This document shows positions 26,801 to 60,135 of a DNA stretch of 64,000 nucleotides, piece by piece (the stretch's first letter is position 1; every line of letters starts with the position of its first letter). Under the pieces are notes generated by a model. It was given only the letters and a program-made list of their open reading frames with translations. It was not told the DNA's origin and made no database searches. Source of the stretch: Mobula hypostoma (taxonomy: Eukaryota); NCBI RefSeq assembly GCF_963921235.1, contig NC_086108.1, positions 33,482,001-33,546,000 on the forward strand, written 5' to 3'. The position numbers and the translations under genes were made by a program.

Positions 26801-27660
26801 CCTGGGAGTCCTTGTGCAGGACTCCCTAAAGGTTAATTTGCAGATTGAGTCTGTGGTGAGGAAGGTAAATACAAACGATGTACAACGTTAGCATTCATTT
26901 CAAGAGGAGTGGAACATAAAAGCAAGGATGTAATGTTGAGACGAGGAACTCTGCAGATGCTGGAAATTCAAGCAACACACACACAGAATGCTGGTGAACG
27001 CAGCAGGCCAGGTAGCATCTATAGGAAGAGGTACAGTCGAAGTTTCGGGTCGTGTGTGTGTTGATGTGATGTTGAGACTTTATTAAGCACTGGTGAAGCC
27101 TCATTTGGAGTATTGTGGGTGGGTTTGGGACTCTTATCTTAGAAAGGATGTGCTGAAACAAGAGAAAGTTCAAAAGAGGCTCACGAAAATGATTCCAGGA
27201 TTGAATGGCTTGTCATATGAAGAGCGTTTGATGGCTCCAGGCCTGTATTCACCATAATTCAGAAGAATGAGGTGTGACCTCATTGAAACTTATCAAATGG
27301 TGAAAGTCCTTGATAGAGTGGATGTGGAGAGGACATTTCCTTTGGTTGGAGAGTCTAAGACCAGAGGACCCCACCTCAGAATAGAGGAGTGTCCTTTTAG
27401 AACGGAGATGAGGTGGAATTTGTTTAGCCAGAGAGTGGTGAATCTGTGGAATTCCTCACCACCGGCGGCTGTGGAGGCCAACACTTTATGTATATTTAAG
27501 GCAGAGTTTGACAGATTCTCGATTGGTCAGGGCATGACGGAATACAGGGAGAAGACAGGAGACTGGGGCTGAGAGAAAAATTGGATCAGCCATGGTGAAA
27601 TAGCGGAGCAGACTCGATGGGCCAAAAGGCCTAATTCTGCTCCAATATCTTCTGGTCTTA
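23870..27660 (+). mobile_element. Near full-length decayed CR1 LINE (ORF1 esterase part, APE, RT)
   Basis: ORF1-like MICCLLGTRAREIS.., APE start YLNARSIQNKVDE, RT fragments in ORFs 25341-27572, and a 3' UTR. Confidence 0.92.
26943..27062 (-). mobile_element. Short PLE terminal insertion inside CR1
   Basis: Matches 10825-10933. Flanked by a 16-bp duplication gatgtRatgttgagac at 26927-26942 and 27063-27078. Confidence 0.85.
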
Positions 27661-28765
27661 TGGAGGAAGCGATCCCCGCGGAAAGCTGGGGGGTGGGCGG
27701 CTGCGGGCATTCGGGAAATTGAGGAGTTGTGGGCGAGGGCAGCATCAATGGTGGAGGAAGGGAAACCCCATTCGTTAGAGAGGAAAGACCACTCTGAAAT
27801 CCTGGAAGGGAAAGCCGCATTCTGGGAAATGATGCGGCGGAGACGAAGGAACTGAGAAAAGGAAGTAGCATTTTTACAGGAGGCAGGGTGGGAAGCGGTG
27901 CTGTATAGTCAAGATTACCGTGGGCATTGGTAGGTTTATGAACGATGTCGCTTCACAGTTTGCCTCTGGAGATGGAGACAGAGCGATCAAGAAAGGGGAG
28001 GGAGATGTCAGAAATTGTCCAAGTGAATTTAAGGGCAGGGTGGAAGTTAGAGGCAAAGTTGACGAAATTGCCGTGCTCAGCCTGAGTGCATATGCAGCCC
28101 CAATGCGGTCGTCAGTATCAGAGAAACAGATGGGGAGTACTCCTGGGGAGGACTTCGAACATGGACTGTTCTACTAGCCAGCCAAAAGGCAGGCATAGCT
28201 GGGCCCATGCGGGTGCCATGACTACCCCTCAAGTCTGGAGAAAGTGGGAGGAGCTGAAGAAAAAACTGTTGAGTGCGAGAACCAGTTCTGCCAGACAGAG
28301 GAGGGCGGTGGTGGAGGGGAATTGGTTGGTTCTTTTGTTAGGAAAGAAGCGGAGCGCTTTAAGGCCTTCTTGATGAGGGATTGAAGAGTATAGGGACTGA
28401 ATATCCATGAAGAAAATCAGGCGGTTAGGGGCAGGGAATTGAAAGTTACTGAGGAGATCCTGTCCCGGATGAAGGTGTGAAGGGACTTAACGAAGGGTGA
28501 TAGAATGGAATGGAGGTATAGGACACGAGTTCAATGGAGCAGGAGCTGGCAGAGATAATAGGCCTACCGGTCAGCCCGGCTTGTGGATCTTGCACTGCAA
28601 GTAGAAGCGAGCAGTACGGGATAAGGGAACTATGAGCTTGGTGACTATGTGAGTTCTCCAGAGTTGATGATGTCGGAGACAGTCTTGTGATGGTCCGGGG
28701 AGGGGGGTGTCTTCTTCAGAGGAGGTGTCCGAGAGTTGCTGCCTGCCCGCAGCAAGGTATAAGTC
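27660..28765 (-). mobile_element. Penelope-like element RT fragment, decayed
   Basis: Colinear with 11720-12985 (PCD..FSQFLRLRRI, MAPAWAQ/GVVMAP, KIHK motifs on the minus strand). Confidence 0.85.
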
Positions 28766-28779
28766 AGTGCGACATCTAC

Positions 28780-29152
28780 CTTGCTGAGAGACGTAGTTGC
28801 TGGACTTCTCCTTTAAGACGGTCGTTACATTTAGGACGTCACAAATGCGTTGACTGGCAACTGCGTTGATATTAGATCAAAGGCTTCATCGCGGTTAGCG
28901 GCTCATTGGCCAACGCTTCTTAACTTTCAGGTTGATCTCTGTCAGCAGGTTAGCCCTTGCGCTGTATATTGGTACGAAGCAATTTCTGCCTTCAGTCATG
29001 GCTAGTTAATTGTTGCAATGGATTGAGGTCTCCGCCTAATCAAACTTTTTTAAACATATGTATATGCATATTAAAATATCAGATTTAATATTGCACCTAT
29101 ATATATATATATATTAACAATGGAGTTACGGTTTGGATAACATCTTATCAAC
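28780..29152 (+). promoter_or_regulatory. Candidate proximal promoter / 5' UTR of the LRRC52-like gene
   Basis: Non-repeat, locally CpG-retaining segment just upstream of the ATG. It has CRE-like gacgtca (28835-28841), X-box-like gttgactggcaac (28849-28861) and an inverted CCAAT (attgg) near 28905. Motif matches only. Confidence 0.35.
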
Positions 29153-29771
29153 ATGTTCCTTTATCGTAGAGAGCCGCAGGGACTGCTATGGAAATTGCTG
29201 TTAGTGGGAGTGACATTGGCTGCTGATTGTCCATCTATGTGTATATGCGAACCTTTCAAGGTAACCTGCAAAGGCAAAGGTTTAAATGCTTTTCCAGAAA
29301 GCCTTCCATTAAACACCAGGCATCTTGACCTCTCAGACAACAGTATCTCCGAAATCAATTCTCTGGAACTCAATCTGCTCGTTGATCTGGTGCACCTGGA
29401 TTGTAGCCACAATGCAATATCGGAGATTTCAAAACTGGATTTCCTCTCTGGCATAAAGCTAGTTTATTTAGATTTCAGTTACAATGCCTTGAAACAAATC
29501 GGCTCGACGACATTGGAAAGTTTAACTAACCTGATCGTGCTGAAGGTCAGTAATAACAAGATAAGCGAAGTGCAGCGGGGCGCCTTTGAAACAAACATTG
29601 GACTTCGGCTGCTTGATCTCAGAAACAATAATCTGACATTTTTTAACGTTTCGTTAATACGAGGTCTTCAAGGACTGAAATCCGTGTATTTGTCTGGTAA
29701 TCCCTGGGATTGTCAATGCACGATTAAACTGCTGAGTCAGTGGTTAAAGGAAAGCAAAGTTACTTTTCCAG
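29153..29771 (+). CDS. LRRC52: LRRC52-like BK/Slo gamma auxiliary subunit, coding exon 1 (signal peptide, LRRNT, LRRs, start of LRRCT)
   Basis: Hydrophobic leader, then CPSMCICEPFKVTC, repeated LxxLDLSxNxI motifs and LSGNPWDCQC. Splice donor CCAG|GTGAGG at 29771/29772 (phase 1). Confidence 0.88.
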
Positions 29772-31539
29772 GTGAGGTTCAGTCTCAAAATCTGTATCAT
29801 TATCTGTGTTTATACAATTTTGGAGAGATTGTAAGTTATCTGTTGTGTGCTGACTTCAAGGTTAACAGTTGCAAGACTGAATTAGCAGAGACTGAGAAAT
29901 CTAAATACTTGAATTAAAATTATGAAGAGAATCAAAATGTGTAAAAATAAGTAGTTAAAAAGCTGGTTCTTCCTGGATTTTACCTTAGAACAGGTCAAAG
30001 TGTAATTGATTGAATTGACAGATTTGTTTTCATCATGAAAGAAGTAAACAAAAAGTGGCAGCAAAGTCCGAAGTTTTATCCTTCCAATGAAATGGAGAAT
30101 GGGCTTGTTTGGTTCTGATGAAGAATCTTAGAAAAAAAGTGTACTCTCTCTTTCAGATGCAGACTGACATTTATGCTGCAAATATTGCACATTTCCCAAT
30201 TTTGCACAACAATTAAGAAATGGAACTGAGCAAATCAAACACTCCCCCCCCAAAAAAAACTGGGTTTAAACAAGTTTGTAAAAATAAATGAGCGTTTCAA
30301 TTTGCATGGAATTTCAGCTAGATTAGGATCTCATCAGATAGGAAGGGGGAATATGAGATGCATTCTACAAAAAATGTGGCAGAAATGGTTAGAATGAATT
30401 AGGAAGAAATGCATAGGCATGGGCAATCTGGTGCAAAATATGGACTCACAAGAGACTGCAATTCTGAAATATGCAGCAACACACAAAATGCTGGAGGAAC
30501 TCAATGGGAGGGAAATGGGCAGTAGATGTTTGAGGTTAAGATCAAAGGTCCGTTTTCCTCCATAGATGCTGCCTGAGCTTCTGAGTTTCTCCAGTGCTTT
30601 GTGAGGTGCATCATATGGCATTTTGGCACTGAGTAGTAAACCACAAGGCTAATAAAATGCTAAGCAAGATAACTACAGTAAATCAATGTCAAAGAATCTT
30701 CAAAGAGCATTGTGGAAGTTTTAGCTTGCATCCAGTTCTGCGTACTGAATGCAAAGCTAGAAAGAAGAGATTGTATCAAGCTATGGAAGCATCCAGAGAA
30801 GAGTAACAATATAATTTCCAATTTCAGATCTGTATTAGGCTTCCTATCTTAGAAAGCTAATCTCCGAATGACCTTTAGAGCTGTATAGAGAAATACATGG
30901 CAGGAAATAACACTTTGAGGTGCAATTTCTAATCAATTGTATAGCTCATATTGAGAAGTTCTTCAGCCAAAGTGGTGTAGTGTAGGCTTGGAGAGGGGGT
31001 GGAGCATGTGAAAATAATGGTTGGTGCATTATAAAGATTTATAATAATATTATTTAAGGTGATTAGCACACCTTTTATCATCTTTGTCCCTTTGCAGAAT
31101 AATGGTCCAGATATGGCTTTGGGAACTGTTGATGTAGATATTTCCTAAACCTTTTCCTATGCATACCTGAGCAGAATTGCTTCATTGTAAAAGCATTTTT
31201 AAAAAGCTTCCAATTTTTATGTGTTTCAATAGTTTTGCTGTCTTGCTTTACTTTATAAAAGGTAGACTTGTAACTTAATTGTAAACTTCACTGTTAAGTT
31301 CTACTTTAACCTTCCTTATTTCCTTCTATTTAAGTTAAGATTTATGTTATCGTATCATTGAATTTTGTGACAATTATTAAAATGTCTATTTTCAAATCTC
31401 GACTTTAATGCAAAAACTTTAATTTTACAAATATATGTTTGGTATAAGCTTCATACAGAAATAGACTATTTTAAAATTTAGTAATATTCTTGGTTAATTA
31501 ATAAAAATAACCATCACCCTATGTAAAAGATCGTAAACC

Positions 31540-32221
31540 TGTCATGGTCCGGTCCGGGAAGTCCGCGTTGTGGTTCACGGTCCGGTCCATGGACTCCGTA
31601 CTCCAGGTCTTCCTGCTGTCCGTGGTTTCATTTGGGCTTAATCATAGGCACCTGATGCTCATCTTGGGGCTGGGAATATAAGTGGCCCTGGTTTCGAGTG
31701 TGGGTGCTGGTTCGTCTCGTCAGTATCTCGTCCTTGCCTCCGTTGGGTAAGCCAGGCCGTCTTTGCTGTTACCCCGAGGCTGGACTGTTCCCTTCCCTTC
31801 CCCTTCCTCCTCCTCCTCCAGCCTCTGCCTGCGTCCTCACCTGTATCGCTGTCAAGTTCTACCACCGGAACAAGACCGGAGCCTTGCCGTGACTAGATAA
31901 GGAACTGTCTATCATTGTTTGGCACTGTCTCTGTGTCCATGCCTTCACTAGGTAGGTCCGGCTGTTTGCTGCTACCTTGTGTTGGGAACTGTCTCTCTGT
32001 GTTCTGTGTATGAGTTCCAGCCCTACATCCTGTTCCCAAGGAGGGGTCCTGGCTCTGTGTTCCATGGTCCTGTCTCTCAAGTCCAAGGCTCCGTGTTCCC
32101 GTGCTCTAGGCCAAGGCTCTGTGTTCTGCGTTCCTGTCGTCCCAAGTCCAAGGTTCCGAAGTTCCTGTCATCCCAAGTCCAAGGCTCGGCTGTTCCTGAG
32201 TGCCAAGTCAAAGCTTTGTGT
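31540..32221 (+). mobile_element. LTR (related to 7990-8954), 3'-truncated by the Gypsy insertion
   Basis: Starts tgtcatggtccggtcc..gttcacggtccggtccat, homologous to the reverse complement of 8954 inward. TATA-like aatataag near 31675. Contains internal ccaaggct repeats. Confidence 0.8.
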
Positions 32222-33029
32222 TGTGACGAAAAACCAAGTTATCAGAAGATTGATGCTAATGAGAGAGAGATAAGTGAGACAATGGAGAAACGTTCAAAAT
32301 GTTAATGAGAGAGGAGAGAGATAACGAAAAGAGACACAATTCAGAGTATTGACAGATGGTTGCTTTGAACCTGAACTGTTTGAAGTTTGATGGACAGGCG
32401 ATACCCCAGCAGGGGGATAAAAAGAACAGGATCGCGAAGGCATGACATACACCACAAGATCACGGCATAATGAGACCCTGGAAGGGCGGTGTGCCCCCCA
32501 CAAATTGGTGGGAGTTGGAGGTCTGGTTCGCGGGAACCGACCATAGACGCACAGGGTAAAAAGGGTACGATCGGTGGGAACCTGGTGTGTGTGTCCGCCC
32601 TTGCCTGGGTGCCGGGTTCACCGCGGAAGAACGGTCGTATCCGGAATGGTACCACAGAAGACATAAAAGGGTCCGCCTGAAACCACCTGTGGACATCAAA
32701 GGTCTGCTGAATCATCTCTCTCTCTCTCTCTCTCTCTCCAACGGCACAACAGTGATTACTGTGAACTGTACTAAGCTGAACTGAACTCTGCGTCACTTGA
32801 GACTGATCATTTTACCCCTAGACTGCGATAGAGCTTGATTGATTCCTATTACCCTAGTTCTGTGTACATATGTGTTTTATCATTGCTAACCTGTTGCATT
32901 TATATCCGTACGATTAGAGTACTGTATTACTTATTTCTTCAATAAAACTTTATTAGTTTCCAGTAATCCAGACTCCAACTAGTGGTCCATTTCTGCTGGT
33001 TCGGCAACCCAGTTACGGAGTACGTAACA
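32222..33029 (+). mobile_element. 5' LTR of a Gmr1-type Gypsy element
   Basis: tgtgacg...cgtaaca inverted termini, AATAAA at 32941, and a PBS immediately downstream. Confidence 0.9.
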
Positions 33030-33033
33030 TAAG

Positions 33034-33051
33034 TGGGGGCTCATCCAGGAT
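33034..33051 (+). promoter_or_regulatory. Primer-binding site complementary to tRNA-Pro
   Basis: tgggggctcatccaggat versus canonical TGGGGGCTCGTCCGGGAT. The two mismatches are both G>A at CpG. Confidence 0.85.
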
Positions 33052-33127
33052 TTTGAATGCCAAATTTGGGACTGAGTAAATTGATTGGGTTAAAATTCCC
33101 GAAAGAAAAAAAGGGCAAACAGCAGAA

Positions 33128-36100
33128 ATGGAGATTGAGGAATTTCTAAAGGCGCCAACCTTGGAGGCATTAGAGGATGCCAGGAAATCAAAATTGTCAA
33201 CTGCGGCCAAACGGTTGAATTTTTTTAAGGGGAAGTCGACAATGGTGCCAGGGTCCGGAATATTTCTGATCGTGTTCAAGATATCCTGAAGTGGGAGGGT
33301 GAGGAGCCAGAGGTCGTGGTACATATAGGTACTAATGACATAGGTAGGAAAAGGGAAGAGGTCCTGAAAGGAGAAAATAGGGAGCTAGGAAGGGAGTTGA
33401 GAAAAAGGACCGCAAAGGTAGTAATCTCGGGATTACTGCCTGTGCCATGCGGCAGTGAGAGTAGGAATGCGATGAGGTGGAGGATAAATGCGTGGCTGAG
33501 GGATTGGAGCAGGAGGCAGGGATTCAAGTTTTTGGATCATTGGGACCTCTTTTGGCGCAGGCGTGACCTGTACAAAAAGGACGGATTACACTTGAATCCT
33601 AGGGGGACCAATATCCTGGCAGGGAGATTAGTGAGGGCTACTGAGGTGACTTTAAACTAGAATGGTTGGGGGGTGGGAATCAAATTAAAGAGGATCAACG
33701 TGAGGAGGTTAGTTCACAATAGGGGGATGGGAACCAGTGCAGAGAGACAGAGGGGTGTAAAGTGAGGGTCGAAGCAAAAAGTAGTAAGGAGAAAAGTAAA
33801 AGTGGCAGGCCGACAAATCCAGGGCAAGCATCAAAAGGGGCCACTTTTCAACATAATTGTGTAAGGGCTAAGAGAGTTGTAAAAGAGCGCCTGAAGGCTT
33901 GTGTGTCAATGCAAGGAGCATTCGTAACAAGGTGGATGAATTGAAAGTGCAGATTGTTATTAATGATTATGATATAGTTGGGATCACAGAGACATGGCTC
34001 CAGGGTGACCAAGGATGGGAGCTCAATGTTCAGGGATATTCAATAGTCAGGAGGGATAGACATGAAAGAAAAGGAGGTGGGGTGGCGTTGCTGGTTAAAG
34101 ATGAGATTAACACAATAGAAAGGAAGGACATAAGCCGGGAAGATGTGGAATCGATATGGGTAGAGCTGCGTAACACTAAGGGGCAGAAAACGCTGGTGGG
34201 AGTTGTGTACAGGCCACCTAACAGTAGTAGTGAGGTCGGAGATGGTATTAAACAGGAAATTAGAAATGTGTGCAATAAAGGAACAGCAGTTATGATGGGT
34301 GATTTCAATCTACATGTAGATTGGGTGAACCAAATTGGTAAAGGTGCTGAGGAAGAGGATTTCTTGGAATGTATGCAGGATGGTTTTTTGAACCAACATG
34401 TCGGGGAACCAACTAGAGAGCAGGCTATTCTAGACTGGGTTTTGAGCAATGAGGAAGGGTTAATTAGCAATCTTGTCGTGAGAGGCCCCTTGGGTAAGAG
34501 TGACCATAATATGGTGGAATTCTTCATTCAGATGGAGAGTGCATAGTTAATTCAGAAACAAAGGTTCTGAACTTAAAGAGGGGTAACTTTGAAGGTATGA
34601 GTCGTGAATTAGCTAAGATAGACTGGCAAATGACACTTAAAGGATTGACGGTGGATATGCAATGGCAAGCATTTAAAGATTGCATGGATGAACTACAACA
34701 ATTGTTCATCCCAGTTTGGCAAAAGAATAAATCAAGAAAGGTAGTGCACCCGTGGCTGACAAGAGAAATCAATTCCAAAGAAGAAGCATACAAATTAACC
34801 AGGAAAATTGGCTCACCTGAGGACTGGGAGAGATTCAGAGTTCAGCAGAGGAGGACAAAGGGCTTAATTAGGAAGGGGAAAAAAGATTATGAGAGAAAAC
34901 TGGCAGGGAACATAAAAACTGACTGTAAAAGCTTTTATAGATATGTAAAAAGGAAAAGACTGGTAAAGACAAATGTAGGTCCCCTACAGACAGAAACAGG
35001 TGAATTGATTATGGGGAGCAAGGACATGGCAGACCAGTTGAATAATTACTTTGGTTCTGTCTTCACTAAGGAGGACATAAATAATCTTCCAGAAATAGTA
35101 GGGGACAGAGGGTCCAGTGAGATGGAGGAACTGAGCGAAATACATGTTAGTAGGGAAGTGGTGTTAGGTAAATTGAAGGGATTAAAGGCAGATAAATCCC
35201 CAGGGCCAGATGGTCTGCATCCCAGAGTGCTTAAGGAAGTAGCCCAAGAAATAGTGGATGCATTAGTGATAATTTTTCAAAACTCGTTAGATTCTGGACT
35301 GGTTCCTGAGGATTGGAGGGTGGCTAATGTAACCCCACTTTTTAAAAAAGGAGGGAGAGAGAAACCAGGGAATTATAGATCGGTTAGCCTAACGTCGGTG
35401 GTGGGGAAACTGCTGGAGTCAGTTATCAAAGATGTGATAACAGCACATTTGGAAAGCGGTGAAATCATCGGACAAAGTCAGCATGGATTTGTGAAAGGAA
35501 AATCATGTCTGACGAATCGCATAGAATTTTTTGAGGATGTAACTACTAGAGTGGATTGGGGAGAACCAGTGGATGTGGTATATTTGGATTTTCAAAAGGC
35601 TTTTGACAAGGTCCCACACAGGAGATTAGTGTGCAAACTTAAAGCACAGGGTATTGGGGGTAAGGTATTGATGTGGATAGAGAATTGGTTAGCAGACAGG
35701 AAGCAAAGAGTGGGAATAAACGGGACCTTTTCAGAATGTCAGGCAGTGACTAGTGGGGTACCGCAAGGCTCAGTGCTGGGACCCCAGTTGTTTACAATAT
35801 ATATTAATGACTTGGATGAGGGAATTAAATGCAGCATCTCCAAGTTTGCGGATGACACGAAGCTGTGTGGCAGTGTTAGCTGTGAGGAGGATGCTAAGAG
35901 GATGCAGGGTGACTTGGATAGGTTGGGTGAGTGGGCAAATTCATGGCAGATGCAATTTAATGTAGATAAATGTGAAGTTATCCACTTTGGTGGCAAAAGT
36001 AGGAAAACAGATTATTATCTGAATTATCTGAATCCTATTAGGAAAAGGGGAGGTGCAACAAGACCTGGGTGTCATTATACACCAGTCATTGAAAGTGGGC

Positions 36101-39100
36101 ATGCAGGTACAGCAGGCGGTGAAAAAGGCAAATTGTATGCTGGCATTTATAGCGAGAGGATTCGAGTACAGGAGCAGGGAGGTACCACTGCAGTTGTACA
36201 AGGCCTTGGTGAGACCACACCTGGAGTATTGTGTGCAGTTTTGGTCCCCTAATCTGAGGAAAGACATCCTTGCCATAGAGGGAGTACAAAGAAGGTTCAC
36301 CAGATTGATTCCTGGGATGGCAGGACTTTCATATGAAGAAAGACTGGATGAACTGGGCTTGTACTCGTTGGAATTTAGAAGATTGAGGGGGGATCTGATT
36401 GAAACGTATAAAATCCTAAAGGGATTGAACAGGCTAGATGCAGGAAGATTGTTCCCGATGTTGGGGAAGTCCAGAACGAGGGGTCACAGTTTGAGGATAA
36501 AGGGGAAGCCTTTTAGGACCGAGATTAGGAACAACTTCTTCACACAGAGAGTGGTGAATCGGTGGAATTCTGTGCCACAGGAAACAGTTGAGGCCAGTTC
36601 ATTGGCTATATTTAAGAGGGAGTTGGATATGGCCCTTGTGGCTACGGGGATCAGGGGGTATGGAGGGAAGGCTGGTGCAGAGTTCTGAGTTGGATGATCA
36701 GCCATGATCATAATAAATGGCTGTGCAGGCTTGAAGGGCCGAATGGCCTACTCCTGCACCTATTTTCTATGTTTCTATGTTTCTATGAGGAGAGCGGAGA
36801 TGCACAGAGCTATCATAGAGCATTATGTATCTAAAGGTGTGTTTCCCCAAGGGGAGCTGGAGGTGGTATCTATGGGCAAACTGGTGGAGAAGCAGTACAG
36901 CTGCAGATGGAAAAATTGAGACTCGAGCACGAGTTCTGGGTAAACAGCTGGAACAAGAAGAGAGGGACAGGCAGTTAGAACGAGAAGCTAGAGAGAAACA
37001 GATGGAAAGGGAATTTGAGCTGGAGAAGTTAAGGATGAGGCTAGCGCAGGGTCCCATGCCGAACCAAGGTGGAGGGTTCAGGGCGACTCAGGAGGTTATG
37101 CTGGTTCCCCCATTTGAGGAGGCCGATGTTGATCGGTACTTTCTACATTTTGAAAAAGTCGCTGCAAGTCAGGACTGGCCGAGGGATAAGTGGGCTGTTT
37201 TGCTTCAGAGTGTATTTAAAGGAAAAGCCCTGCAAGCTTACTCAGCATTGTCCGCAGAAGATGCCCAGAGGTATGATGTGGTGAAAGAGGCGATACTTAG
37301 GAATTATGAGTTGGTCCCGGAGGCATACCGGCAGAGGTTCTGGAATGCGAGGAAGCAGTGGGGCCGCACGTATTTAGAGTTTGCCCATGAGATGCAGATG
37401 TATTGTGAGCGTTGGTGCGCCTGGAAAGGAGTCAATGGGGATTATGACAGACTGCTGCAGCTAGTACTGATTGAGCAGTTTAAAAGTTGTGTCCCTGAAG
37501 GTATGAGGCCCTATCTAGATGAGTAAGAGGCAGAAACCTTAGACGCAACTGCTAAGTTAGCGGATGAATACGTGTTAACGCACAAAGTGAAGTTTACCTC
37601 GAGTAAAAGATACCAGAAGGGTAGTCAAGAGGGCGAAGATAGTCCGCCGGAAAAGCCAGAAAGTAAGCCAGGCACTAGTGAGAAGGATAAGGAAGACCGG
37701 GAGCAGTTTAGTAGGAAGTCTCCTGGGGTCGTATGCTATAATTGTGGGAAAGCCGGTCACTTTGCATCCAGGTGCTTTGCCCCAAAGAAGGAGACGAGGA
37801 AAGGAAAAACGATGGTTCCGACTGGCTGTATTGAGCTGGAAAACAAACTGCTAGGGGAGAAGAGGTCTGATAAAGTTCAGGAAGGGCGCGAGGTTTATCT
37901 CGGCCGGATTGGTGTCAGTGAAGGAGGGGTTAAACCTGGTTCCAGTACGGATCTGGAGAGACACTGGAGCTTGTCAGTCACTGATCTTAAGGAGTGTGTT
38001 AGACTTTAGTTCAGAGACCGAGACTGGGGAGGTCAGTGTGATAAAAGGCATTGGGAAAGGGACTGAAGCAGGTCCTTTGCACCAGATACACCTAAAAAGC
38101 GACTTGGTCTCCGGACCAGTCATGATCGAGGTGAGGCCCGAACTACCGATGGAAAACGTGGAGGTCTTGCTCGGTAATGACCTCGCCGGCGGAGAGGTGT
38201 ACCCAGCAGTAAGATTGACAAGCCAGCCTGCCAGGACTGAGGACCCGTCCATGGACTCACAGGTTTATCCCGTTTGCGCAGTGATTCGGCGCATGTCCCG
38301 GAAGGCTGCCGAAGCAAATATAGATTTAGCTGAGATGTTTTTACCAGCCTTGTACCAGGAGGGGTTAGAAAGTGAAAAGAAGGAGCATAGTAAAATGGAA
38401 GGAAGTAAGGGAGTTGAGTTAGACTTATCATTAGCAAGGAAGGAATTTATACAGGCACAGGAGCGAGAGGAGGAGCTAATGGTTTTGACGGAGGCAGCCC
38501 TCTCCAAAGCAGAATTAAAGAGGGAGCCAGTGGGCTATTATGTGAAGGAGGGAGTACTAATGAGGAAATGGAGACCACGTACCATGCCCGCAGATGGGGA
38601 ATGGGGGGTGGTGCACCAGGTGGTAGTGCCAAAAATTTATGGGGATGAGATTTTTAAGCTGGCCCACAAGATACCCCTCGGTGGACATTTTGGGGTGAGG
38701 AAAACAGTCGGTAGAATCATGAAAGAGTTTTATTGGCCGCACAGGAGGAAGGATGCTATTGACTATTATAGACGTGAGCCGACACAGTTACAGACTCTTG
38801 ATATGCTAACAGCTTGCCACAATAAGAGAGCAGACCTAGTCGGTGTTATCACGAAAATTAATGAGGCTAGGGTGCCACCTGATAAGGGGAAAACCCATTT
38901 TGAACAGTTAAGTATGGTGCCGACCAGATGGGAGAACTCTATTGTTTTGGCCAGCTTTGCTGATAAGGTCTCTCCCTTAACCCCCGAACAGAGCGAGCCG
39001 CTGAGAAAGCTAATTAACCGGCACGCACACGTATCTCCGGATGTCCCGAGGCGATGCAAAGAGCCGGTACATGGTGGTGTTGTCACATCAGGTCAGCCTA

Positions 39101-39957
39101 GTAAGCAACACCCCCACAGGATGATTAATTCAGTGACAAAAGGGCTAAAGAATGCAGAAGCGTATATTGACAATTTAGTGGTCTGGGGTGACACGTGGGA
39201 GGAGCACATTGTGGAACTGTTTAAATGGCTGTTTGAAGCCAACCTGACAGTGAACCTTGCAAAAAGTGAATTCGGCCACACGAAGGTCACTTATATGAGA
39301 TTTGTGGTAGGACAGGGGCAGCTAGCTCTGATGCAGGCTAAGGTGCGGGCTATCTCTGAAGTCCCCACCCTGACAGACAAGAGAGCCCTGAGAAGATTCT
39401 TGGGGATGTTGGAGTACTGTCGGAAGTTTTGCAAAAACTTTGTGGATATTACTCTCCCTCTCACTAAGCTCTTGCCAAAGAATGCGAAGTTTGTGTGGAA
39501 CGACCTTTGTCAACAAGCCTTCGAGAGTCTGAAGGCGATTCTGTGTCACGATCCTGTGCTGAATGCGCCTGACTTTTCAAAACCCTTCTCCCTAGCAACA
39601 GATGCTAGCGACGAAGCAGCCAGGGCGGTGCTGTTGCAGACAGAGAAAGAGGGGGTTGACCACCCAGTGGCTTATTTCTCTAAGAAATTTAATATCCATC
39701 AGAGAAATTATTCCACTGTGGAAAAGGAGTTACTGGCCATCATACTAGCATTACAACATTTTGAGGTTTATATTTGTCCGGCACGGAAACCACTGGTAAT
39801 TTACACTGACCACAACCCATTAGTGTTTTTGGCCACTATGAAGGATAAGAACAAAAGGTTGCTAAGTTGGAGCCTGGTCTTACAGGAATTTGATATTAAA
39901 ATAAAACATATAAAAGGAATGGAAAATGTGATTGCTGACTGTCTGTCAAGGGGTTGA
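33128..39957 (+). mobile_element. Gmr1-type Gypsy internal region: gag (SCAN-like capsid, CCHC knuckle) and deleted pol (PR, partial IN, partial RT, RNase H)
   Basis: gag ATG at 33128 (MEIEEFLKAPTLE..) resumes after the CR1 at 36788. Motifs: YELVPEAYRQRF..LIEQF, CYNCGKAGHFASRC, protease RDTGA, IN HH motif LAHKIPLGGHFG upstream of RT YIDN, and RNase H TDAS/EKE/TDH/ADCLSR. Stop at 37524 and frameshifts near 36890 and 37890. No 3' LTR seen. Confidence 0.93.
33245..36787 (+). mobile_element. Young 5'-truncated CR1 LINE inserted in gag
   Basis: ORF1 SGNH-esterase part (VVHIGTND..DGLHLN), APE (NARSI..GITETWL..GDFN..SDH), RT (GVPQGSVLGP, FADD), and a (tttctatg)n tail. Confidence 0.97.
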
Positions 39958-40089
39958 CAACTTAAAGTTCTCTGTATTAGCCGAATAGCTGATGACCCTG
40001 TATATTAGTGTGTATCTAATCCTGACATTTTGACATGAGTCAAACATAAATTTGGTATATTGAACCACTCCTTTTTTACTTTGCAACAA

Positions 40090-42656: not shown

Positions 42657-42851
42657 AAGCAACATACATCAAAGTTGCTGGTGAACGTAGCAGACCAAGC
42701 AGCATCTCTAGGAAGAGGTGCAGTCGACGTTTCAGGCCGAGACCCGTCGACTGCACCTCTTCCTAGAGATGCTGCTTGGCCTGCTGCGTTCACCAGCAAC
42801 TTTGACGTATGTTGCTTGAATTTCCAGCATCTGCAGAATTCCTGTTGTTTG
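42657..42851. mobile_element. Fold-back PLE terminal insertion
   Basis: 73-bp inverted arms at 42657-42729 and 42745-42817, matching the PLE terminal repeat at 10820-10940. Flanked by agtatt(aa) at 42651 and 42852. Confidence 0.9.
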
Positions 42852-48794: not shown

Positions 48795-48912
48795 ACTGAT
48801 GAAGAGTCTCAGCCCAGAACATCAGCAATTTATTCATCTCCATAGATGCTGCCTGACCTACTGAGTATTTTGTGTGTGTTGCTCTGGATTACCAGCATCT
48901 GCAGAATCTCTT
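48795..48912 (+). mobile_element. Short PLE terminal insertion starting at a degenerate hammerhead
   Basis: ctgatgaagagtctcagcccagaacatc..tagatgctgcctgacc..ccagcatctgcagaatctc. Confidence 0.75.
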
Positions 48913-49955: not shown

Positions 49956-50029
49956 TTATTGTTGGTTGTGATTCAATGTGATTCTTTGAACAAGTAAACA
50001 CAAGGAAATAATTTGCTTTTGATTCACAG

Positions 50030-50325: not shown

Positions 50326-50573
50326 TAAAGGTCTTTTCAGGAATATCCTGTCACAAGGAACTCTTTATTTTATCAGTAAGGTCATTGGTAGGATGGTTCA
50401 TGTTATGAGTTAAATTAAAATGAATTATTTGCTAACCAATGGATCAATATAATGAACTATGTAGAAAACTCAAGGGCATCTCTCAGCAAAATTATCATGG
50501 TTCAATTATGTAGTACTTTCTTTGCAATTTATATATTTTCGGAAGCACTCATTTATTTTGTAAGCTATATGCC

Positions 50574-50579
50574 AATAAA
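50574..50579 (+). terminator. Candidate polyadenylation signal of the LRRC52-like gene
   Basis: AATAAA ~250 nt after the stop, with GT-rich sequence downstream near 50623-50640. Confidence 0.5.
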
Positions 50580-51094
50580 ATTTATTATACATTTCCAAGA
50601 CTACTGATTTATGAATGAATAATGTGTATTGTGTGTTGAGAACAAAAGTCCCCTTTGCCCTGCTGATATACAGATATAGTCAGATTGACACCTGATATGG
50701 TTCAGCACATCAAGGCATTTCTGATCTTATTTTTCCATACAATTTTCTCAGAGATAGAAAGTAGCTGGATACAGCTGCATGAATGGCGGGGGCCTAGCAA
50801 GCACTGATCCCCATTGGATATTGCTCACTCCTGGGTCTAGTTAGCAAGTGAAGGTTGCTATTTGAATAATGGAGATGGTGTTCAAGAGCCATGAGGTAAT
50901 GCTGCAGCCTTGTAAGACTCTGGTCAGACCACATATGGAGTATTGTGTTCAGTTCTTAACGCCTCATTATAAAAAGAATGTGAAACTTTACAGAGAATGC
51001 AGAGGAGATTTACCATGATGCTGCCTGGATTACATCCTATCTGTACAGACGAACCTAATTCTATCATTACCAGTAAACTTACATGCATATTGGA

Positions 51095-51817
51095 TAAGAT
51101 GTCAGGAAGGGGAAGTCGAGTGAACATACACCGGTCCTCATCAAGGGATCTGCAGTGGAAAGGGTGAGCAGTTTCAAGTTTCTGGGTGTCAATATCTCTG
51201 AAGATCTATCCTGGGCCCAACATATTGATGTGATTACAAAGAAGTCACGACAGCACTTATATTTCATTATGAGTTTGAGGAGACTGGTTACGTTACTGAA
51301 GACTCTCTCAAGTTTCTATGGATGTACCGTGGAGGACATTCTAACTGTTTGCTTAACTGTCTGGTGTGGAGGGGCCACTGCATAGGATTGAAAAAAACTG
51401 CAGAAGGATGTAAACCCAACCCAGCCAGCTCCATCATGGGCACTAGTGTCCCAAGCATTGAGGACATCTTCGAAAGGCGGTGCCTCGAAAAGGCAACGTC
51501 CATCATTAAGGACATGCCCTCTTCTCACTGCCACCATCAGGAAGATGGTTCAGGAGCCTGAAGACACACACTCAATGTTTCAGGAACAGCTTCTTCCCCT
51601 CTGCCATCAGATTTCTGAATGGACAATGAACTTATGAACACTACCTCAGTATTTTCTATTTTTGCTCTCTTTTTGTACTATTTATTAAAATATATATACG
51701 TATATTTCTTATTGTGATATAGTTATTATCATGTATTGTAATATACTGCTACCACAAAACAACAAATTTCACAACATATGCCAGTGATATTAAACCCAAT
51801 TCTGATTCTGATTCTGA
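51095..51817 (+). mobile_element. Rex1/Babar-type LINE 3' fragment
   Basis: ORF 51155 (ERVSSFKFLGVNISEDLSW) and a (gattct)n tail. Confidence 0.88.
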
Positions 51818-52639
51818 AGTGGAAACCCTCATTCTGTGCAAGCTAGAAGCAGCTAATACGATTGTCACCAGAATGAAAATCATTTAGCTCAACACCAATG
51901 AGACACCGAACGTAGGAATTCCATGGAGAAATTCCATGGTAAGGCTTTTCTGTGTGCAGATTTTTGGGGGACTGTGAATACCATGTGTTGAATTTTGGAA
52001 TGCCAAGTGGCAACTCCGAGATTTATTGCAAATGAAAGGATTTCCACTTCCTATATGCTCAGTGGTAAGTGATAATAAACAAAGTTGAATGAGGTCAATC
52101 TCCAGAATCTTGGCAGTAGCAACAATGCCCCTTTCGGCAATGGTCTGAAGTGCAATATACATTTGAACAGACACAATGAAAAAGGATGGATTCAGATTAA
52201 CAAGTGTTTTCCACCATAACAATAACACTAGACTCTCCTGCTTATTTTGCAAATGTGTGGACATAGGATGATATGTTGCTACATGAAACATATAGACCAA
52301 GCTTAGACTTAAGTAACATCTTTGCAGTCTGGACCACTCTGGAGCAGCCTAGCAGTGCTCAGCAATATGGTTTACTAAGAACTCTGTCATCAGGATTTAC
52401 ACTTGCTCCAAGTACATGGTGAACAGCAGAAGAAGAGGAATAGAGGAACGATATTGAAAACTCATTTATTGGTATAACATCCATGAATAACGCATCTCAC
52501 TGCATGGTCGGTAAAATAAAATTACAATTGTAAATACAACTGCCCACATCTTCCCTTCCCTCCATTGCTGACCATCACAAGATCCACTCTGGGCAAGCTA
52601 CCAGAACAAAGATCACCACCAAATAAAGATTCTAAATTG

Positions 52640-53220
52640 TTAGAACTTGGAACAGTACAGCACAGGAGCAGGCCATTCAGCTTACAATGCTGTGCTGAAC
52701 CAGCTAAAAAGTAACTCAAAAATGCCCAACACTAATCCATCCTATGTCCCCAATGTCCATATCCTTCCATCTTCTTTACATTCATGTGCCTATCCAAATG
52801 TCTCCTAAAAGTCTCTGATGTACTTGCCTGTACTACCATACCAGGCAGTGCATTCCAAACATCCACCACTCTGAGTAAAACCTTACCCCTCACATCTCCC
52901 TTGAACCTACCCCCTCTCACCTTCAGTATATACCTTCTGCTATTAGTCATTTCAATCCTGGGAAAAAAGACATTCCCTGTCTACTCTGTCTAAGCCTCTC
53001 GTAATCTTATAAACCCTGTCAGGTCTCCCCTCAGCCTCTGCAGTTCCAGAGAAAACAACCAATTCTTTTATCCATCTTTTCTTGATAGTAAATGCGCTTT
53101 AAACCGGGCAGGATCCCGGTAAAGCTTGTCTGCTCTCTCTCGAAAGCCTCAACATCCTTCTTACAGTGGGGCAATAGTGCAGATGTGGCCTAACCAGAGT
53201 CTTAAAAAGTTGCAACATAT
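52640..53220 (-). mobile_element. CR1 3' fragment
   Basis: ORF 52732-52950 (LKVRGGRFKGDVRGK). Same family as 2130-2890. Confidence 0.85.
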
Positions 53221-53341
53221 CACCTAAGTGTCTACATACTAAACAAAACTATAGACAAATCTCTGCCAGTGACTTATATTCAGTGTCTAGGTGCCTGCCT
53301 TTCATGGATTCATGTCTTTTTTAGTGCTCTTGGATTGATCT

Positions 53342-53840
53342 AGCCTCACTATAGGAAGGATGTGGAAGCACTGGAAAGGGTACAGAGGAGATTTACCAGG
53401 ATGCAGCCTGGTTTAGAGAGTATGGATTATGATCAGGGATTAAGGGAGCTAGGGCTTTACTCTTTGGAGAGAAGGAGGATGAGAGGAGACATGATAGAGG
53501 TGTACAAGATATTAAGAGGAATAGATAGAGTGGATAGCCAGCACCTCTTCCCCAGGACATCACTGCTCAATACAAGAGGACATGGCTTTAAGGTAAGGGG
53601 TGGGAAGTTCAAGGGGGATACTAGAGGAAGGTTTTTTACTCAGAGAGTTGTTGGTGCATGGAATGCACTGCCTGAGTCAGTGGTGGAGGCAGATACACTA
53701 GTGACGTTTAAGAGACTACTAGACAGGTATATGGAGGAATTTAAGGTGGGGGGTTATACGGGAGGCAGGGTTTGAGGGTCGGCACAACATTGTGGGCCGA
53801 AGGGCCTGTAATGTGCTGTACTATTCTATGTTCTATGTTC
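53342..53840 (+). mobile_element. CR1 3' fragment
   Basis: ORF 53362-53775 and a (ttctatg) tail. Confidence 0.92.
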
Positions 53841-55554
53841 AATGACTTTGGAAGGCTGCTGTCTTTCAGTAGTGAAAACTCCATGTGACCTTAGAGAAAC
53901 TCCAAGTTGCCCTAGGCTAGATTTTGAACTATTATATTAGCTTGAACGTGAGCTTACTGCAGAGATGGACATCAGCAAGGGTGTTGCTGAAGTGGTTCTG
54001 ATGTGTTCATGATGGTCATTCCTTGCAATCACCACTATCCAACATTCCACACAATATCACTCTCACCACAACTGAAATAGTGTCTGTTGGGACTCGGGAC
54101 CGTTGGAGGGCTGAGACGCCCTGTAAGTCTGTAAGAGTCTGGCGTCCATTGCAGCAGCAGTCTGCGTGGGCGCCACAGAAATGTGACTTTCTGCTAATCA
54201 TCATCCCAGATGTTGAGTAACATCTGGTTGTGCGCCAATAGATGCTGAGTAATCAGCCAGCAGATACCGCATATTGATGTGGGATCAAGGTGCAGCTCAG
54301 AGCTTCCATCCTGGAAAGGATGGGCCGTGCAGCGTTCATGCTGGGACTTGGCACGGCCTATCCAAGTCTAGCAATGCCACATGCACCATGTACTGCACTG
54401 TGCATAGCCATCAGCCTCTCTCTGCAGGATGGTCTAGCTTACACCGAATTATCTGTAGTAGAGTGCATGTGTAGCTTCGTACCCCGGTGATGGGGTGGGG
54501 ATGAAGGAACAGTTGCACACAAACATCAGCTCGCAAGAAAATACGGAATGTGACACAGGAGATCAGGTCAGTCATCCATGGACTGTACCCTATTTCTGCT
54601 TAAGTAACAATGAGCACCCTCCCCTCCATGAGGGGCATTGATGCCCCTGTAACCTGTCATCCATTAGTTACTCATCGCTGCCTTCTATTAGTACTATCTT
54701 GGATACAGCAGAGGACAGGCACCTCAGCCCACCAACACTGCACGAATCATCAAACAGCCATTTGTACTAATCCTACACCAATTCCATTTTCTCCCCACTT
54801 ATCAGCATATTAGGGGCAATTTACAGTGGCCAGTTAACATCACTGGCGTATGGGAGGTAATTGAAATGCCCAGAGGTAAATACGTACAGCCGGCATTGGA
54901 CATCGGTACTGAATCTGCGTCACTGGAGTGGTCAGAAGGTAGCTCGACTGGCTGCACCACTCTGCCCTCTTGTCCAGGGAGAGGAAGACCTGTGATAATA
55001 AATAGTAAATCCTTATTAAAAACTATTTTAGGATAATCTCAATTAGTGCAGGCCCCCTTAAGTTTAAACTTTGTGGTTGCAGAAATATTTAAGTGGGATA
55101 GTCAGGGTGAATATTGGAAATAAGACCATTGGAGGAAAACATTTGCGTCCCTGTGCCTGTTCATCATTGTTGATCTTCTGTACCAGCACCACTTTCCTGC
55201 ACGAAGATCCCCCTCCTATCAAGAAAGCTACCAATCTCTGTCTTGAATGTACTTGGCAACTGAGCTTCCTTCATCCTCCTTGGTAGAAAATTTCAAAGAT
55301 TCACTGCTCTCTGGCTGAAGAAATTTCTTTTTATCTTTGTCTGGAATGGCTGGCCACTTATTTTGACCCAGTCAATTGCAATTAGCTAGAGAGACCATAA
55401 CTGTAGTAGCCCAAATGTCATCTACCATGGAGTTACATTGTTTCAGTAAGAAATCTTTACGTCTATATTTAAATCCTTTGCAACAAAGGCCAAAACAATT
55501 ATTTGCCTTCCTAATTATTTGCTGCAACTGCATGTTAATTTCTAATGATTTGAG

Positions 55555-56395
55555 TACCATATTTATAAATGACCTGGATGAGGAAGTAGACTGGGCTGAG
55601 AAGTGGCAGATGGAGTTCAACCCAGATAAGTGTGAAGTGGTTCATTCTGGTAGGTCAAATATGATGGCAGAATATAGTATTAATGGTAAGACTCCTGGCA
55701 TTGTAGAGTATCAGAGGGATCTTGGGTCCGAGTCCATAGGACACTCAAAGCTGCTGCACAGGTTGACTCTGTGGTTAACCTTCATCAATGGTGGAATTAG
55801 TTTAGGAGCCAAGAGGTAATGTTGCAGCTATAAGGATCCTGGTCAGACCCCACTTGAAGTACTGTGCTCAGTTCTGGACGCCTCACTACAGAAAGGATGT
55901 GGAAACCATAGAAAGGATGCAGAGGAGATTTACAAGGATGCTGCCAGGATTGGGGAGCATGCCTTATGAGAATAGGTTGAGTGAACTTGGCCTTTTCTCC
56001 TTGGAGCGATGGAGGAGGAGAGGTGACCTGATAGAGGTGTATAAGATGATGAGAGGCATTGATCCTATGGATAGTCAGAGACTTTTTCCCAGAGCTGAAA
56101 TGGCTAGTACAAGAAGACACAGTTTTAAGGTGCTTGGAAGTAGATACAGAGGAGATGTCAGAGGTAAGTTTTTTATGCAGAAAGTGGTGAGTGCGTGGAA
56201 TGGGCTGCCGGCGACGGTGGTGGAGGCAGATACAATAGGATCTTTTAAGAGACTCCTGGATAGGTACATGGAGCTTAGAAAAATAGAGGGCCATGGGTAA
56301 CCCTAGGTAATTTCTATGGTAAGGACATGTTCGGCACAGCTTTGTGGGCCAAAGTGCCTGTATTGTGCTGTAGGTTTTCTATGTTTTATGTTCTA
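55555..56395 (+). mobile_element. CR1 3' part
   Basis: ORF 55854-56300. Same subfamily as the antisense copy at 57150-58165. Confidence 0.9.
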
Positions 56396-57149
56396 CCAAG
56401 GACACCCGGGTCCCACTGAGTAGCAACACTCCTTAATCTCCGTGATATAAAAGTAGGTCCTTATTTCTATTTTCTACATAAGTGGGTGACTTCATATTTT
56501 TCCACATTATATTCCATCTGCCCATTCCTCTCCCATTTACTGAGACTGGTTGCAGTGACATAATCAATAATGGATTGATTAGGGGAAGATGATGTGGTTT
56601 GTTAAAGGCAGCTCATGTTTAACTCACCCGATCAAGTTTTGCGATGAGGGGATCGCGAGGGCCAGTGCGAGAAATATGACTGATGTGATGTACTGTGCAC
56701 CGACTTCCAAAAGTTGTTAAGAAGTTTGCTATGAATATATTAGTTATCAAGATTGAGGCCCATGGGGTAAAAGGGACAGCAGCAGTAAATAAGAAGAGAA
56801 CATAACAGCACGAGAAATAGGAGCAGGAGTAGGCCATCTGGCCCGTCGAGCCTGCTCCGCCATTCAATACGATCACGGCTGATCTGGCCATGGACTCACC
56901 TCCACCTACCTGCCTTTTCATCATAACACTTAATTCCCCTACTATGCAAAAATAAATATTGGCTAGGTGAGAGAAAATGGAGTAGTAGCCAGCACTTACT
57001 TTTCAAACTGGAGGAAGATATACCCTGGGATTCCATTGAGGTCTAGCAATTCTCTTAGCCTGTATTAATGACATAGATTGGTTTGTGCAGCACACAATTT
57101 ACAAATCTGTAGATGAACCAAAATTTGGAAGTGTAGTGAAATGTGAGGA

Positions 57150-58165
57150 AACACAGAAACATAGAAAACCTACAGCACAACACAGGCCCTTCGGCCCACA
57201 AAGCTGTGCCGAACATGTCCTTACCTTAGAACTACCTAGGCTTTACCCATAGCCCTCTGTAAGCTCTATGTACCCATCCAGGAGTCTCTTAAAAGACCCT
57301 ATCATTTCCACCTCCACCACTGCCACCGGCAACCCATTCTACGCACTCACCCCTCTCTGCATAAAAATCTTACCCCTGACATCTCCTCTATACCTACTTC
57401 CAAGCACCTTAAAACAATGCCCTCTCATGCTAGCCACTTCAGCCCTGGGAAAAAGCCTCTGACTATCCACACAATCAATGCCTCTCATTATCTTGTACAC
57501 CTTTATCAGGTCACCTCTCAACCTCCGTTGCTTCAAGGGGAAAAGGCTGAGTTCATTCAACCTATTCTCATAAGGCGTGCTCCCCAATCCAGGCAACACC
57601 CTTGTAAATCGCCTCTGCACCCTTTCTATGGTTTCCACGTCCTTCTGTAGTGAGGTGACCAGAACTGAGCACAGTACTCCAAGTGGGGTCTGACCAGGGT
57701 CCTATATAGCTACAACTTTACCTCTCAGCTCTTAAACTCAATCTCACGATTGATGAAGGCTAATGCACTGTATGCCTTCTTAACCACAGAGTCAACCTGC
57801 GGAGAAGCTTTGACTGTCCCATGGACTCGGACCCCAAGATCCCTCTGATCCTCCACACTGCCAAGAGTCTTACCATTAATACTATATTCTGCCATCATAC
57901 TTGACCTACCAAAATGAACCACCTCACACTTATCTGGGTTGAACTCCATCTGCCACTTCTCAGCCCAGTTTTGCATCCTATCAATGTCCTGCTGTAACCT
58001 CTGACAGCCCTCCACACTATCCACAACACCACCAACCTTTGTGTCATCAGCAAATTTACTAACCCATCCCTCCACTTCCTCATCCAGGTCTTTTATAAAA
58101 ACTACAAAGAGCAGGCATCCCAGAACAGATCCCTGAGGCACACCACTGGTCACCGGCCTCCATGA
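57150..58165 (-). mobile_element. CR1 3' part
   Basis: ORFs 57725-58210 (SGVPQGSVLG, SKFADDTK) and 57339-57638. Confidence 0.92.
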
Positions 58166-60135
58166 GAAGAGCAGGAGGATGGCATGAGACTGGTGGAATT
58201 GGTGGAACATGACAGATAAAATTAAACACAGGCAGATATTAAGTGTTGCACTTATGTAGGACTAGCAGGGAGAGGCAATGTGAATTAGATATCACAATGC
58301 TAAAAGGTGTCTAGGAACAGTTATAACTGCATCGATTGTTGATTGAAGTAGCACAGTCTGAGAAAGCAGCTCAAACATGTGTGGGATCCTGGGCTTTACA
58401 AATAAAAACATGGAATACCTGAGAAAGAAAATCATGATAAACCTTTATAATCCTGGTCTGGAAACAAATAGAAATTGGGTCCTACATCTGGGCATTACTC
58501 TTTAGAAAAGATGTGAAGGCTTTGTAGAAGAGATGATTCAAGGAAAAAGGGAGGTTAAAGTTGTGGAGTGACTCGGGATAAAAAGCTACTGCTGTTTTCT
58601 TTGGAACAGAGGAGGTTGAGAGGGAACAAAAACAAAATATTGGAGGAACTTTGTGGGTCAGGCAACATTTATGGAGGAGGCAAATGACATTTTGGAATAA
58701 GCACTTCATCAGAGAGGAGATCTAAGAGAGGTATTTAAAATTATGAAGGTTGTACAAAAGCTAGATGAAAGGAAACTGTTCCTATTGATAGAAGGGAGAA
58801 GAATCAAAGGACTGGGTGTTTTAAATATCAATTTTGGTCGATTCCACAGACGATTATGGCGATTACTAACAGGTTGAACCATATTAGTTGTCCACCAAAT
58901 AGTTCAATTCTCTCTAAGTTCTCTATAGAGCAATCCCATGACTGAAATCATATCCAGCTTGATTTAACGTCATTACCTGAAGCAAACACTACCACAAAAT
59001 TCCTGGACTTATTTCTAAAAAGCAATCTCACAAGATGTAGGTCAGTGTGTTCAAATTGCAGATAAATACACATAAACAGATTAGCTTACAAGATAATCGT
59101 GAAGGTTGTAAATAATTCAAAGTCATAAGATTCCTATTATATCACAACCTTTATTTAGAAAGGAGAACTTGCACTTAAATAGTGCATTCCATGATCTCAG
59201 GAAATACCATACCCTGCCATTTGAGACAGCACCTTGTGATCTTATGTGACCATTTAGGATGGAGGGAGATGAGGCCACAGTTTAACCTCATGTTCCGACA
59301 TCCGAATCTCCAGCAATGCACTGTTTTCTTAGTTCTACTCTGACAGTGATAGTATCTACAAGAGGTGTTTCCTCAAGGAGGCAACATCCATCATCAAAGA
59401 TCTCCAGGCCATGCCATGCCATGCCATGCCATGCCACCATCAAGCAGAAGGAACAGAAGCCTGAAGTGGCACACCACCATGTTCAAGAACAGCTACTTCC
59501 ATTCAGTTGTTTGGTTCTTGAAGCAACCGTTCCAACCCTAGTCACTAGCTCAGTATAGTAACGTTAACCTTTTGATCATTTTGCACAAAGACTGACTTTT
59601 CTGTTGTTCTAATTATGCTTTTTTTCTTGTAAAAATTATGCATGAATGTTTTTCTTCTGAATGCCACTTATATGAAGCTACGTGCTTGTAATGCTGTTGC
59701 AAGTAAGGTTTTCATATGCACTTATGCAACGATAATAAAATTGACTTCACATTAGATTTGATTTTTGCATTCAATTATTTAAATCATAACCTTGTGACTT
59801 AAAGGTGAGAGAGTTTTGCTATTTGAACAAGTGCTGGCATTGATTTCAGAAAGTCCAAATCTTGGGGTAGGATGGTTTGGCTGTCTCTGCTACAACCCCA
59901 GTATTTACCTGCTCTTCACTGATTTCAGTAACTTAATGATTACAGCCAGTGCCTTGCTGGATTAGTGGAAATGCTTGCGGACTGCTGCAGCATTGACCTT
60001 CCCTTCGCCCATGGTTGATCAAGCTGATTCCATTCTGCTGAGCTGCTATTTCCATGTCTCATTCTATCCTAGTGATTTCTATATGATCAACTGAGATGGT
60101 GTAAGGAAAGAGTTATATTTGATTCCTCATTGTTA

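Follow-up and report, generated by a model that had tools for sequence, protein, structure and literature searches.

A 5' breakpoint hotspot at the outer edge of hammerhead helix I in truncated copies of a Penelope-like element of Mobula hypostoma

Penelope-like elements (PLEs) that carry an endonuclease (EN+ PLEs) are described, in the accessible text of two reports, as inserting in units with 5' truncation, an adjacent inverted copy and a one-sided tail of 30-40 bp (PMC8557442, PMC3846280); the first of these texts also gives a CX2-5CxxC linker between reverse transcriptase (RT) and endonuclease as a feature of the Neptune clade (PMC8557442). According to the text of PMC11167929, RNA that has not been cut is the main substrate in vitro, and none of the reads ends at the ribozyme cut site. 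Retrozymes lacking long terminal repeats (non-LTR retrozymes), as far as the available text describes them, consist of units of 150-450 bp arranged head to tail, carry two or more hammerhead motifs and are expressed as circles (PMC7229834; bioRxiv 10.64898/2026.07.22.740005). Here we examine PLE copies in a 64-kb window, made up mostly of retroelements (the whole stretch analysed, 64,000 nt, positions 33,482,001 to 33,546,000 of contig NC_086108.1, assembly GCF_963921235.1), of the Mobula hypostoma genome (3.48 Gb), and in samples of the genome at large. Truncation, inversion, the tail and solo minimal hammerheads are already published. What we add is a sharp and genuine hotspot of 5' breakpoints at the 5' edge of hammerhead helix I, for which several possible causes are weighed below; such a hotspot was not found in the freely accessible text searched.

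All offsets below refer to one copy of the young PLE family, whose features in the window are as follows.

10818..13624, minus strand: long 5'-truncated young-family PLE copy, the reference for every offset
11569..13140, minus strand: RT reading frame, broken by frameshifts (Pfam RVT_1 E 4.3e-5, below the curated cut-off)
11246..11767, minus strand: C-terminal frame whose translation contains a CX4CxxC linker and a GIY-YIG-like motif (Pfam GIY-YIG E 0.094, weak)
10916..10951, minus strand: minimal type I hammerhead motif, from motif reading and predicted fold
10951-10948, minus strand: hammerhead helix I 5' arm, offset -31..-28
10947-10941, minus strand: hammerhead CUGANGA box, C3 of CUGA being -27
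10927-10924, minus strand: hammerhead GAAA box
after 10920, minus strand: predicted hammerhead cut (GUC^), C17 at window 10920 being offset 0
10919-10916, minus strand: hammerhead helix I 3' arm
10818..10853, minus strand: optional 3' tail of about 35 nt between two preferred 3' ends (about +67 and about +102), from the 3' end histogram

The order of domains is that of EN+ PLEs, RT followed by a C-terminal GIY-YIG, with both domains below their curated cut-offs and the copy broken. The CX4CxxC linker, as read from the translation, would fit the Neptune clade. The partial tandem containing the hammerhead that constitutes the pseudo-LTR (pLTR) of EN+ PLEs was found as an untranslated region (UTR), hammerhead and tail preceding the body in loci L041, L088, L262, L265, L267, L268 and L276; the tail is one-sided and optional, and 5'-truncated inverted copies are present. 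The body's first in-frame ATG lies at about +139. In the hammerhead we recognized the CUGANGA and GAAA boxes, an NUH site, helices I and II and a palindromic minimal helix III, and the helices appear in the predicted fold of -33..+8; an Rfam scan returned no hammerhead family match at E<=1. The family is young and very abundant. All 40 scored genome matches to the 3' 443 bp of the copy are 96-100% identical, and genome-wide counts are 31,975 for an exact 45-mer from the young tail, 89,996 for a tail 27-mer with one degenerate site, and 792 for a 21-mer just downstream of the tail, found only in copies with the start of the body.

Run over 1.664 Mb, made up of the window and 160 evenly spaced 10-kb loci, a profile hidden Markov model of the terminal repeat identified 321 arms; it identified none in reversed controls. 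The breakpoint histogram is based on sampled loci. An arm entered it if it matched the window copy at 86% identity or more and extended as far as +20, which gave 161 young arms. The evenly spaced set contributed 82 of them, out of 252 BLAST matches. The other 79 came from an anchored set of 70 loci, chosen by means of the 45-mer within the first 6.5 Mb of one contig; 105 arms remained there after de-duplication, and the 26 without the anchor were dropped. Fold-back ends were called ungapped; BLAST's ends at -40 are a self-complementarity artefact. The risk set holds 153 of the young arms, the other eight having their ends downstream of +7.

An earlier note, made from the letters of the window alone, had proposed plotting 5' breakpoints relative to GUC^, a smooth distribution without a hammerhead peak counting as a refutation of its reading. 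The distribution is not smooth, and it does peak at the hammerhead, but at -23..-35 rather than at GUC^. The mode is -31 (8 arms), the 5' edge of helix I, and 37 of the 161 young arms (23%) end at -23..-35. Within -26..-35 there are 30 ends among 128 arms at risk, versus 37 ends in the 30-nt flanks (rate ratio 5.1, P 6e-10), with similar ratios for single (5.4) and inverted (5.2) arms. Per 100 nt, the end rate is 0.33 at +7..-2, then 0.34 and 0.57, reaches 1.76 at -23..-25 and 2.64 at -26..-35, and drops to 0.63 upstream of -36, then 0.22, and 0.07-0.18 beyond -75. The peak window -26..-35 was picked after viewing the first 80 loci, so the anchored set, drawn from one contig end, serves as an independent check: the peak holds in the evenly spaced sample (14/60, P 4e-5) and is replicated in the anchored one (16/68, P 3e-6). 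By extrapolation, on the order of 40,000 young arms end at -23..-35 genome-wide.

Homology might also appear to be lost at a conserved hammerhead simply through UTR differences between families. This does apply to older copies compared with the young reference, but the statistics are limited to the young arms, whose long copies match the UTR at 98%, and target-site duplications (TSDs) directly abut the ends: of the 19 single arms with ends at -23..-35, 12 have a TSD score of at least 8, versus 13/400 in the null. An alignment artefact is thus largely excluded for the young family, and as an overall explanation it is very improbable indeed. Among older arms reaching -23, 81 of 151 lack a pyrimidine-rich UTR upstream (Y<0.7; a cut-off of 0.75 misclassified long young copies, whose UTR score is 0.71), which suggests from base composition that older copies also stop near helix I, at lower resolution. 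Their local-alignment ends are noisy and were excluded from the statistics. Older stubs reach a TSD score of at least 8 in only 4 of 56 cases (null, 2%); their TSDs being mostly decayed, composition is the sole guide to the older-family ends.

The cut site itself shows no peak, with only three ends at -1..+3 among the 153 arms (rate ratio 0.73, P 0.78). The earlier note had offered self-cleaved, ribozyme-delimited small RNAs mobilized in trans, as in a retrozyme, as one source of the window inserts. Cleaved RNA would start at +1, and since so few ends lie there this reading is unsupported for these inserts. The tandem arrays that the note proposed to look for are absent from the window; stubs carry one motif or two opposed motifs, never head-to-tail units, and no unit bounded by the cleavage site was found. 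By haplotype the stubs are interspersed with long copies, with no non-autonomous lineage of their own. On the other side, the hammerhead core is intact in 60 of the 120 arms spanning it, and short two-hammerhead units do exist elsewhere in the genome. We give the retrozyme reading very little credence, and for the window inserts it is contradicted by the missing GUC^ peak, the missing arrays and the monomer or fold-back form.

The 3' ends of young arms cluster near +67 and +102, and the peak is present in both classes (20 of 78 and 17 of 57 arms, respectively); it is thus fixed by position and not by the length copied. Length-limited abortive synthesis is ruled out, the two classes stopping at one place. 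Each of the 41 fold-backs combines one arm that has the tail with one that lacks it. The longer arm ends at -23..-36 in 18 of them, while pairs that straddle -36, one arm ending inside it and the other beyond, number only 3, a count as low in none of 20,000 permutations. We infer that both target strands were primed, one per start site, and that the cDNAs were joined head to head. For such structures Arkhipova and colleagues offer, in the accessible text of PMC3846280, self-priming on an antisense template, and the fold-backs here may have arisen in that way.

The same note's other suggestion was that reverse transcription stalls or switches at the folded ribozyme. Breakpoints do peak at the hammerhead, but on its 5' side, beyond the fold; a stall inside the ribozyme would be expected on the 3' side, so this idea is only partly supported. 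Stem II, helix I and the core all lie before the peak on the enzyme's path, and the two arms of a fold-back tend to share the limit, so a template end fits better than a stall in the fold. We therefore favour, as a reading about equally apt to prove right or wrong, internal starts of reverse transcription at about +67 and +102, on one or both target strands, with run-off on uncut RNA that begins at helix I. By extension from the text of PMC11167929, the +67 and +102 ends would be reverse-transcription start sites, both target strands would be able to prime, and priming would require RNA downstream of the tail. As such RNA is needed in vitro, priming of a transcript that begins at helix I would take place close to the 5' end of that transcript: a transcript started at about -31 and primed at these 5'-proximal sites would yield only products of 100-135 nt, single or fold-back. 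The RNA end near -31 could be a transcription start or a trimmed end. Since such a transcript would give stubs only, coding copies would need tandem or circular templates, and longer copies in general could come from tandem, read-through or circular ones. The stubs contain the whole hammerhead motif, so their templates would have been uncut or re-ligated. An initiator-like CCAGTCC/TTAGTCC lies at about -31.

Several observations weigh against run-off at helix I. The initiator-like word is also dictated by helix I pairing. No RNA end was observed, the only material being assembled contigs from four runs presumed to be RNA, which cover the terminal repeat but are blind to starts and strand. Arms that run past the 5' junction into a second pass end at -23..-35 in 0 of 14 cases versus 37 of 135 other arms (Fisher P 0.02), but no difference is left once the interval is widened to -23..-45 (3/14 versus 43/135, P 0.55), the three lying at -36..-45. 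If the main transcription start lay at -31, some copies with a full-length-type body should begin there; none of 8 does, so the run-off model needs separate templates for long copies. By eye, none of 5 single arms starting at -31 has an extra cap-type G. The peak window was set post hoc, with replication from that single 6.5-Mb contig end. Finally, arm ends correlate in 15 long pairs (Spearman 0.50, P 0.056), which weakens the argument from fold-back pairs.

The main rival, possible though on balance doubtful, is a barrier on a longer RNA, where RNA structure or a bound protein would release the enzyme at -23..-35; refolding may displace the nascent cDNA, or splicing factors on the pyrimidine tract may act alike. 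In the predicted fold, the core at -27..-17 and young UTR sequence at about -46..-34 form a hairpin, and the loop of that hairpin, at -33..-28, coincides with the peak; several fold-back junctions in the peak region use short complementarity, and no second class of template would be necessary. The core-sequestering hairpin is, however, the best predicted fold in only some of 16 long copies, and older copies also stop near there. A stop acting at each pass should also hit second passes, where the count is zero, and should yield many discordant pairs, of which just the three straddling pairs were found. We also observe that at window 10937-10966 (minus strand) the predicted pairing of young UTR with CUGANGA would silence the hammerhead in read-through RNA and free it in RNA starting at -31.

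The sequence around the peak would also suit a 3' splice site at the 5' edge of helix I, with spliced or misprocessed RNA setting the breakpoint at -33 or -29. A branch-point-like word lies at -51..-45, followed by a pyrimidine tract and AG at -35/-34 and -31/-30; tract and AG also occur in older families. The arrangement matches the splice acceptor of D. virilis Penelope in the text of PMC4209133 and PMC2377424, and the intron end of that element, as given in the former, maps to the helix I 5' end. Yet none of 12 TSD-resolved stubs has a common upstream exon, the mode at -31 retains the AG, the entire UTR is pyrimidine-rich, and no GT..AG joint is among the joints listed from the contigs of the presumed RNA runs. 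A splicing-related end is improbable.

A separate non-autonomous master, resembling a short interspersed nuclear element, beginning at -31 and copied in trans, would account for the many stubs of similar length, and non-autonomous composites (L270/L272, below) do occur in the genome. But the 39 peak arms and 88 long arms share three main haplotypes, with mean differences of 6.2 within peak arms, 6.1 from peak to long and 6.0 within long arms, and the smallest per-site P is 0.03 over 83 sites. The ends are moreover scattered over 13 nt and recur in older families. With haplotypes common to stubs and long copies, there is no sign of a separate master, and we consider one quite unlikely.

We also put forward a broader scheme, tentatively and as distinctly less than probable. 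Two template classes would exist: linear uncut RNA starting exactly at helix I, which through internal priming close to its 5' end would give only stubs of 100-135 nt (tens of thousands per genome), and circular or tandem RNA, which would give coding copies. The hammerhead would show where the message begins and direct RNA to one fate or the other, and the rarer units of 290-460 nt with two hammerheads would represent nascent retrozymes derived from templates with internal deletions.

The terminal-repeat profile finds 10 arms in the window and no match in all reversed control sequence. Besides the reference copy, the inserts are:

26943..27062, minus strand: stub covering -13/-10 to +95, with a 16-bp TSD and an 11-nt inverted tail piece in front of it, within a CR1-type long interspersed nuclear element (LINE)
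42657..42851, unstranded: young head-to-head fold-back, tail-less arm to +69 and tailed arm to +102, short TSD
30457..30605, unstranded: decayed older-family head-to-head fold-back, junction inside the hammerhead motif (profile E 2e-4 and 7e-7)
48795..48912, plus strand: older-family stub (profile E 2.5e-23)
58624..58712, minus strand: older-family tail-less stub with a weak TSD (profile E 4e-6)
30112..30168, plus strand: possible strongly decayed stub starting at about -30, unproven (second profile E 0.17)
23068..23854, minus strand: longer older-family copy that extends across the hammerhead to its own UTR and coding end; an internal control
3502..4160, minus strand: longer older-family copy, also running through the hammerhead

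Five of the six inserts that the earlier note had singled out as PLE terminal pieces broken at the ribozyme are borne out. The insert at 26943-27062 does break in stem II, at -13..-10 (loop II or the 3' arm of the stem), and the halves of the CR1-type LINE align across it. The fold-backs do turn at the motif, at about -23..-18 and -3 for the two arms of 42657-42851 (TSD score 8) and, although decayed, in the one placed at about 30450-30605. The start of 48795-48912 and the minus-strand start of the stub at about 58625-58712 fall at -28/-27, as claimed. No convincing TSD was found for 30457-30605 or 48795-48912. The sixth, given as 30114-30190, is absent with the first profile and scores 7.3 bits with the second, against 4.1 bits for the best reversed-control match. 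Start positions of the seven stub arms range from about -28 to +9, with none at the cleavage site (+1), and the other three arms (10951, 23180 and 3588) continue through the motif into the UTR. An additional weak match to the tail profile lies at 22643-22707 (minus strand, E 0.017). The window inserts are ordinary dead stubs of a very abundant PLE.

Elsewhere in the genome, 19 of the 792 loci with the downstream 21-mer were fetched. The 18 distinct ones comprise 6 full-length-type bodies, 1 larger deletion and 11 short units:

L261, L263, L264, L266, L270, L271, L272, L273, L275, L277, L278, at roughly 900-2600 of each locus: short PLE units arranged head to tail

In these, +177..+290 is joined back to -45..-166, giving head-to-tail units of 290-460 nt from which nearly all coding sequence is missing. 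At least two intact hammerhead cores of the same pattern are present in 8 of the 11, the TSD score exceeds 8 in 7 of 11, and in two the identical junction is repeated twice. The downstream junctions mostly cluster at +250..+290. L270:1222-1851 and L272:1207-1843 carry one 620-bp fold-back composite (96% identical, with different flanks) whose deletion and inversion junctions agree exactly between the two loci; it is a non-autonomous unit in separate insertions, copied at least once. Three of 17 second-pass arms (L266:1380, L273:1379 and L275:1381) end at -6/-7, just upstream of the cut, and 5 of 148 first-pass arms end at -3..-12; these numbers are small.

PLE integration and the role of the hammerhead are open questions in the available text of PMC11167929 and PMC8557442, and this very large set of dead copies is an in vivo footprint of integration. 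In the footprint, the 5' end of the copied RNA is not set by cleavage, both start sites are used by fold-backs, and there is a sharp limit at helix I. That limit gives 5'-end mapping, and the in vitro assay that already exists, a precise and inexpensive target.

Other features of the window include a 30-bp unit repeated 71 times at 15707-17837 (91% matches, several frames open), an open frame with leucine-rich repeats at 29141-29917 (plus strand, Pfam LRR_8 E 7e-16) that is probably a host exon, and two 3-kb CR1-type LINE copies at 33771-36787 and 60136-63161 (96.9% identical). An LTR retrotransposon with broken gag/pol-like frames, as judged by eye from translations, occupies 36819-39957 (plus strand), and an inverted repeat of about 480 bp at 6107-6589, 83% self-complementary, has no match to the PLE tail profile.

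Compared with the EN+ PLE units described in the text of PMC8557442 and PMC3846280, the copies here have the same truncated and head-to-head arms, a tail on one arm, TSDs and partial tandems forming pLTRs; they differ in the 5' preference for the hammerhead edge (37 of 161 young arms), which is unreported in those texts. Poseidon of Anolis carolinensis (PMC11167929) likewise has a pair of 3' ends downstream of the hammerhead, separated by about 35 nt, with both strands extended and, in the text of that report, no indication that cleavage defines the template. Its open reading frame starts inside stem II, unlike the first body ATG here, and its genomic 5' ends are not described in the text. The minimal hammerheads of metazoan pLTRs have the same motif architecture and are mostly single, attributed in the text of PMC4209133 to truncated PLEs; that text proposes cleavage and circularization, with no mapping of 5' ends. 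Non-LTR retrozymes, as described in PMC7229834 and the bioRxiv text, resemble the stubs in being PLE-derived and non-coding, with a type I hammerhead and larger TSDs, but the window stubs are monomers or fold-backs. The short head-to-tail units found elsewhere in the genome, which are rare and have no representative in the window, are nearer to these retrozymes than the window stubs are.

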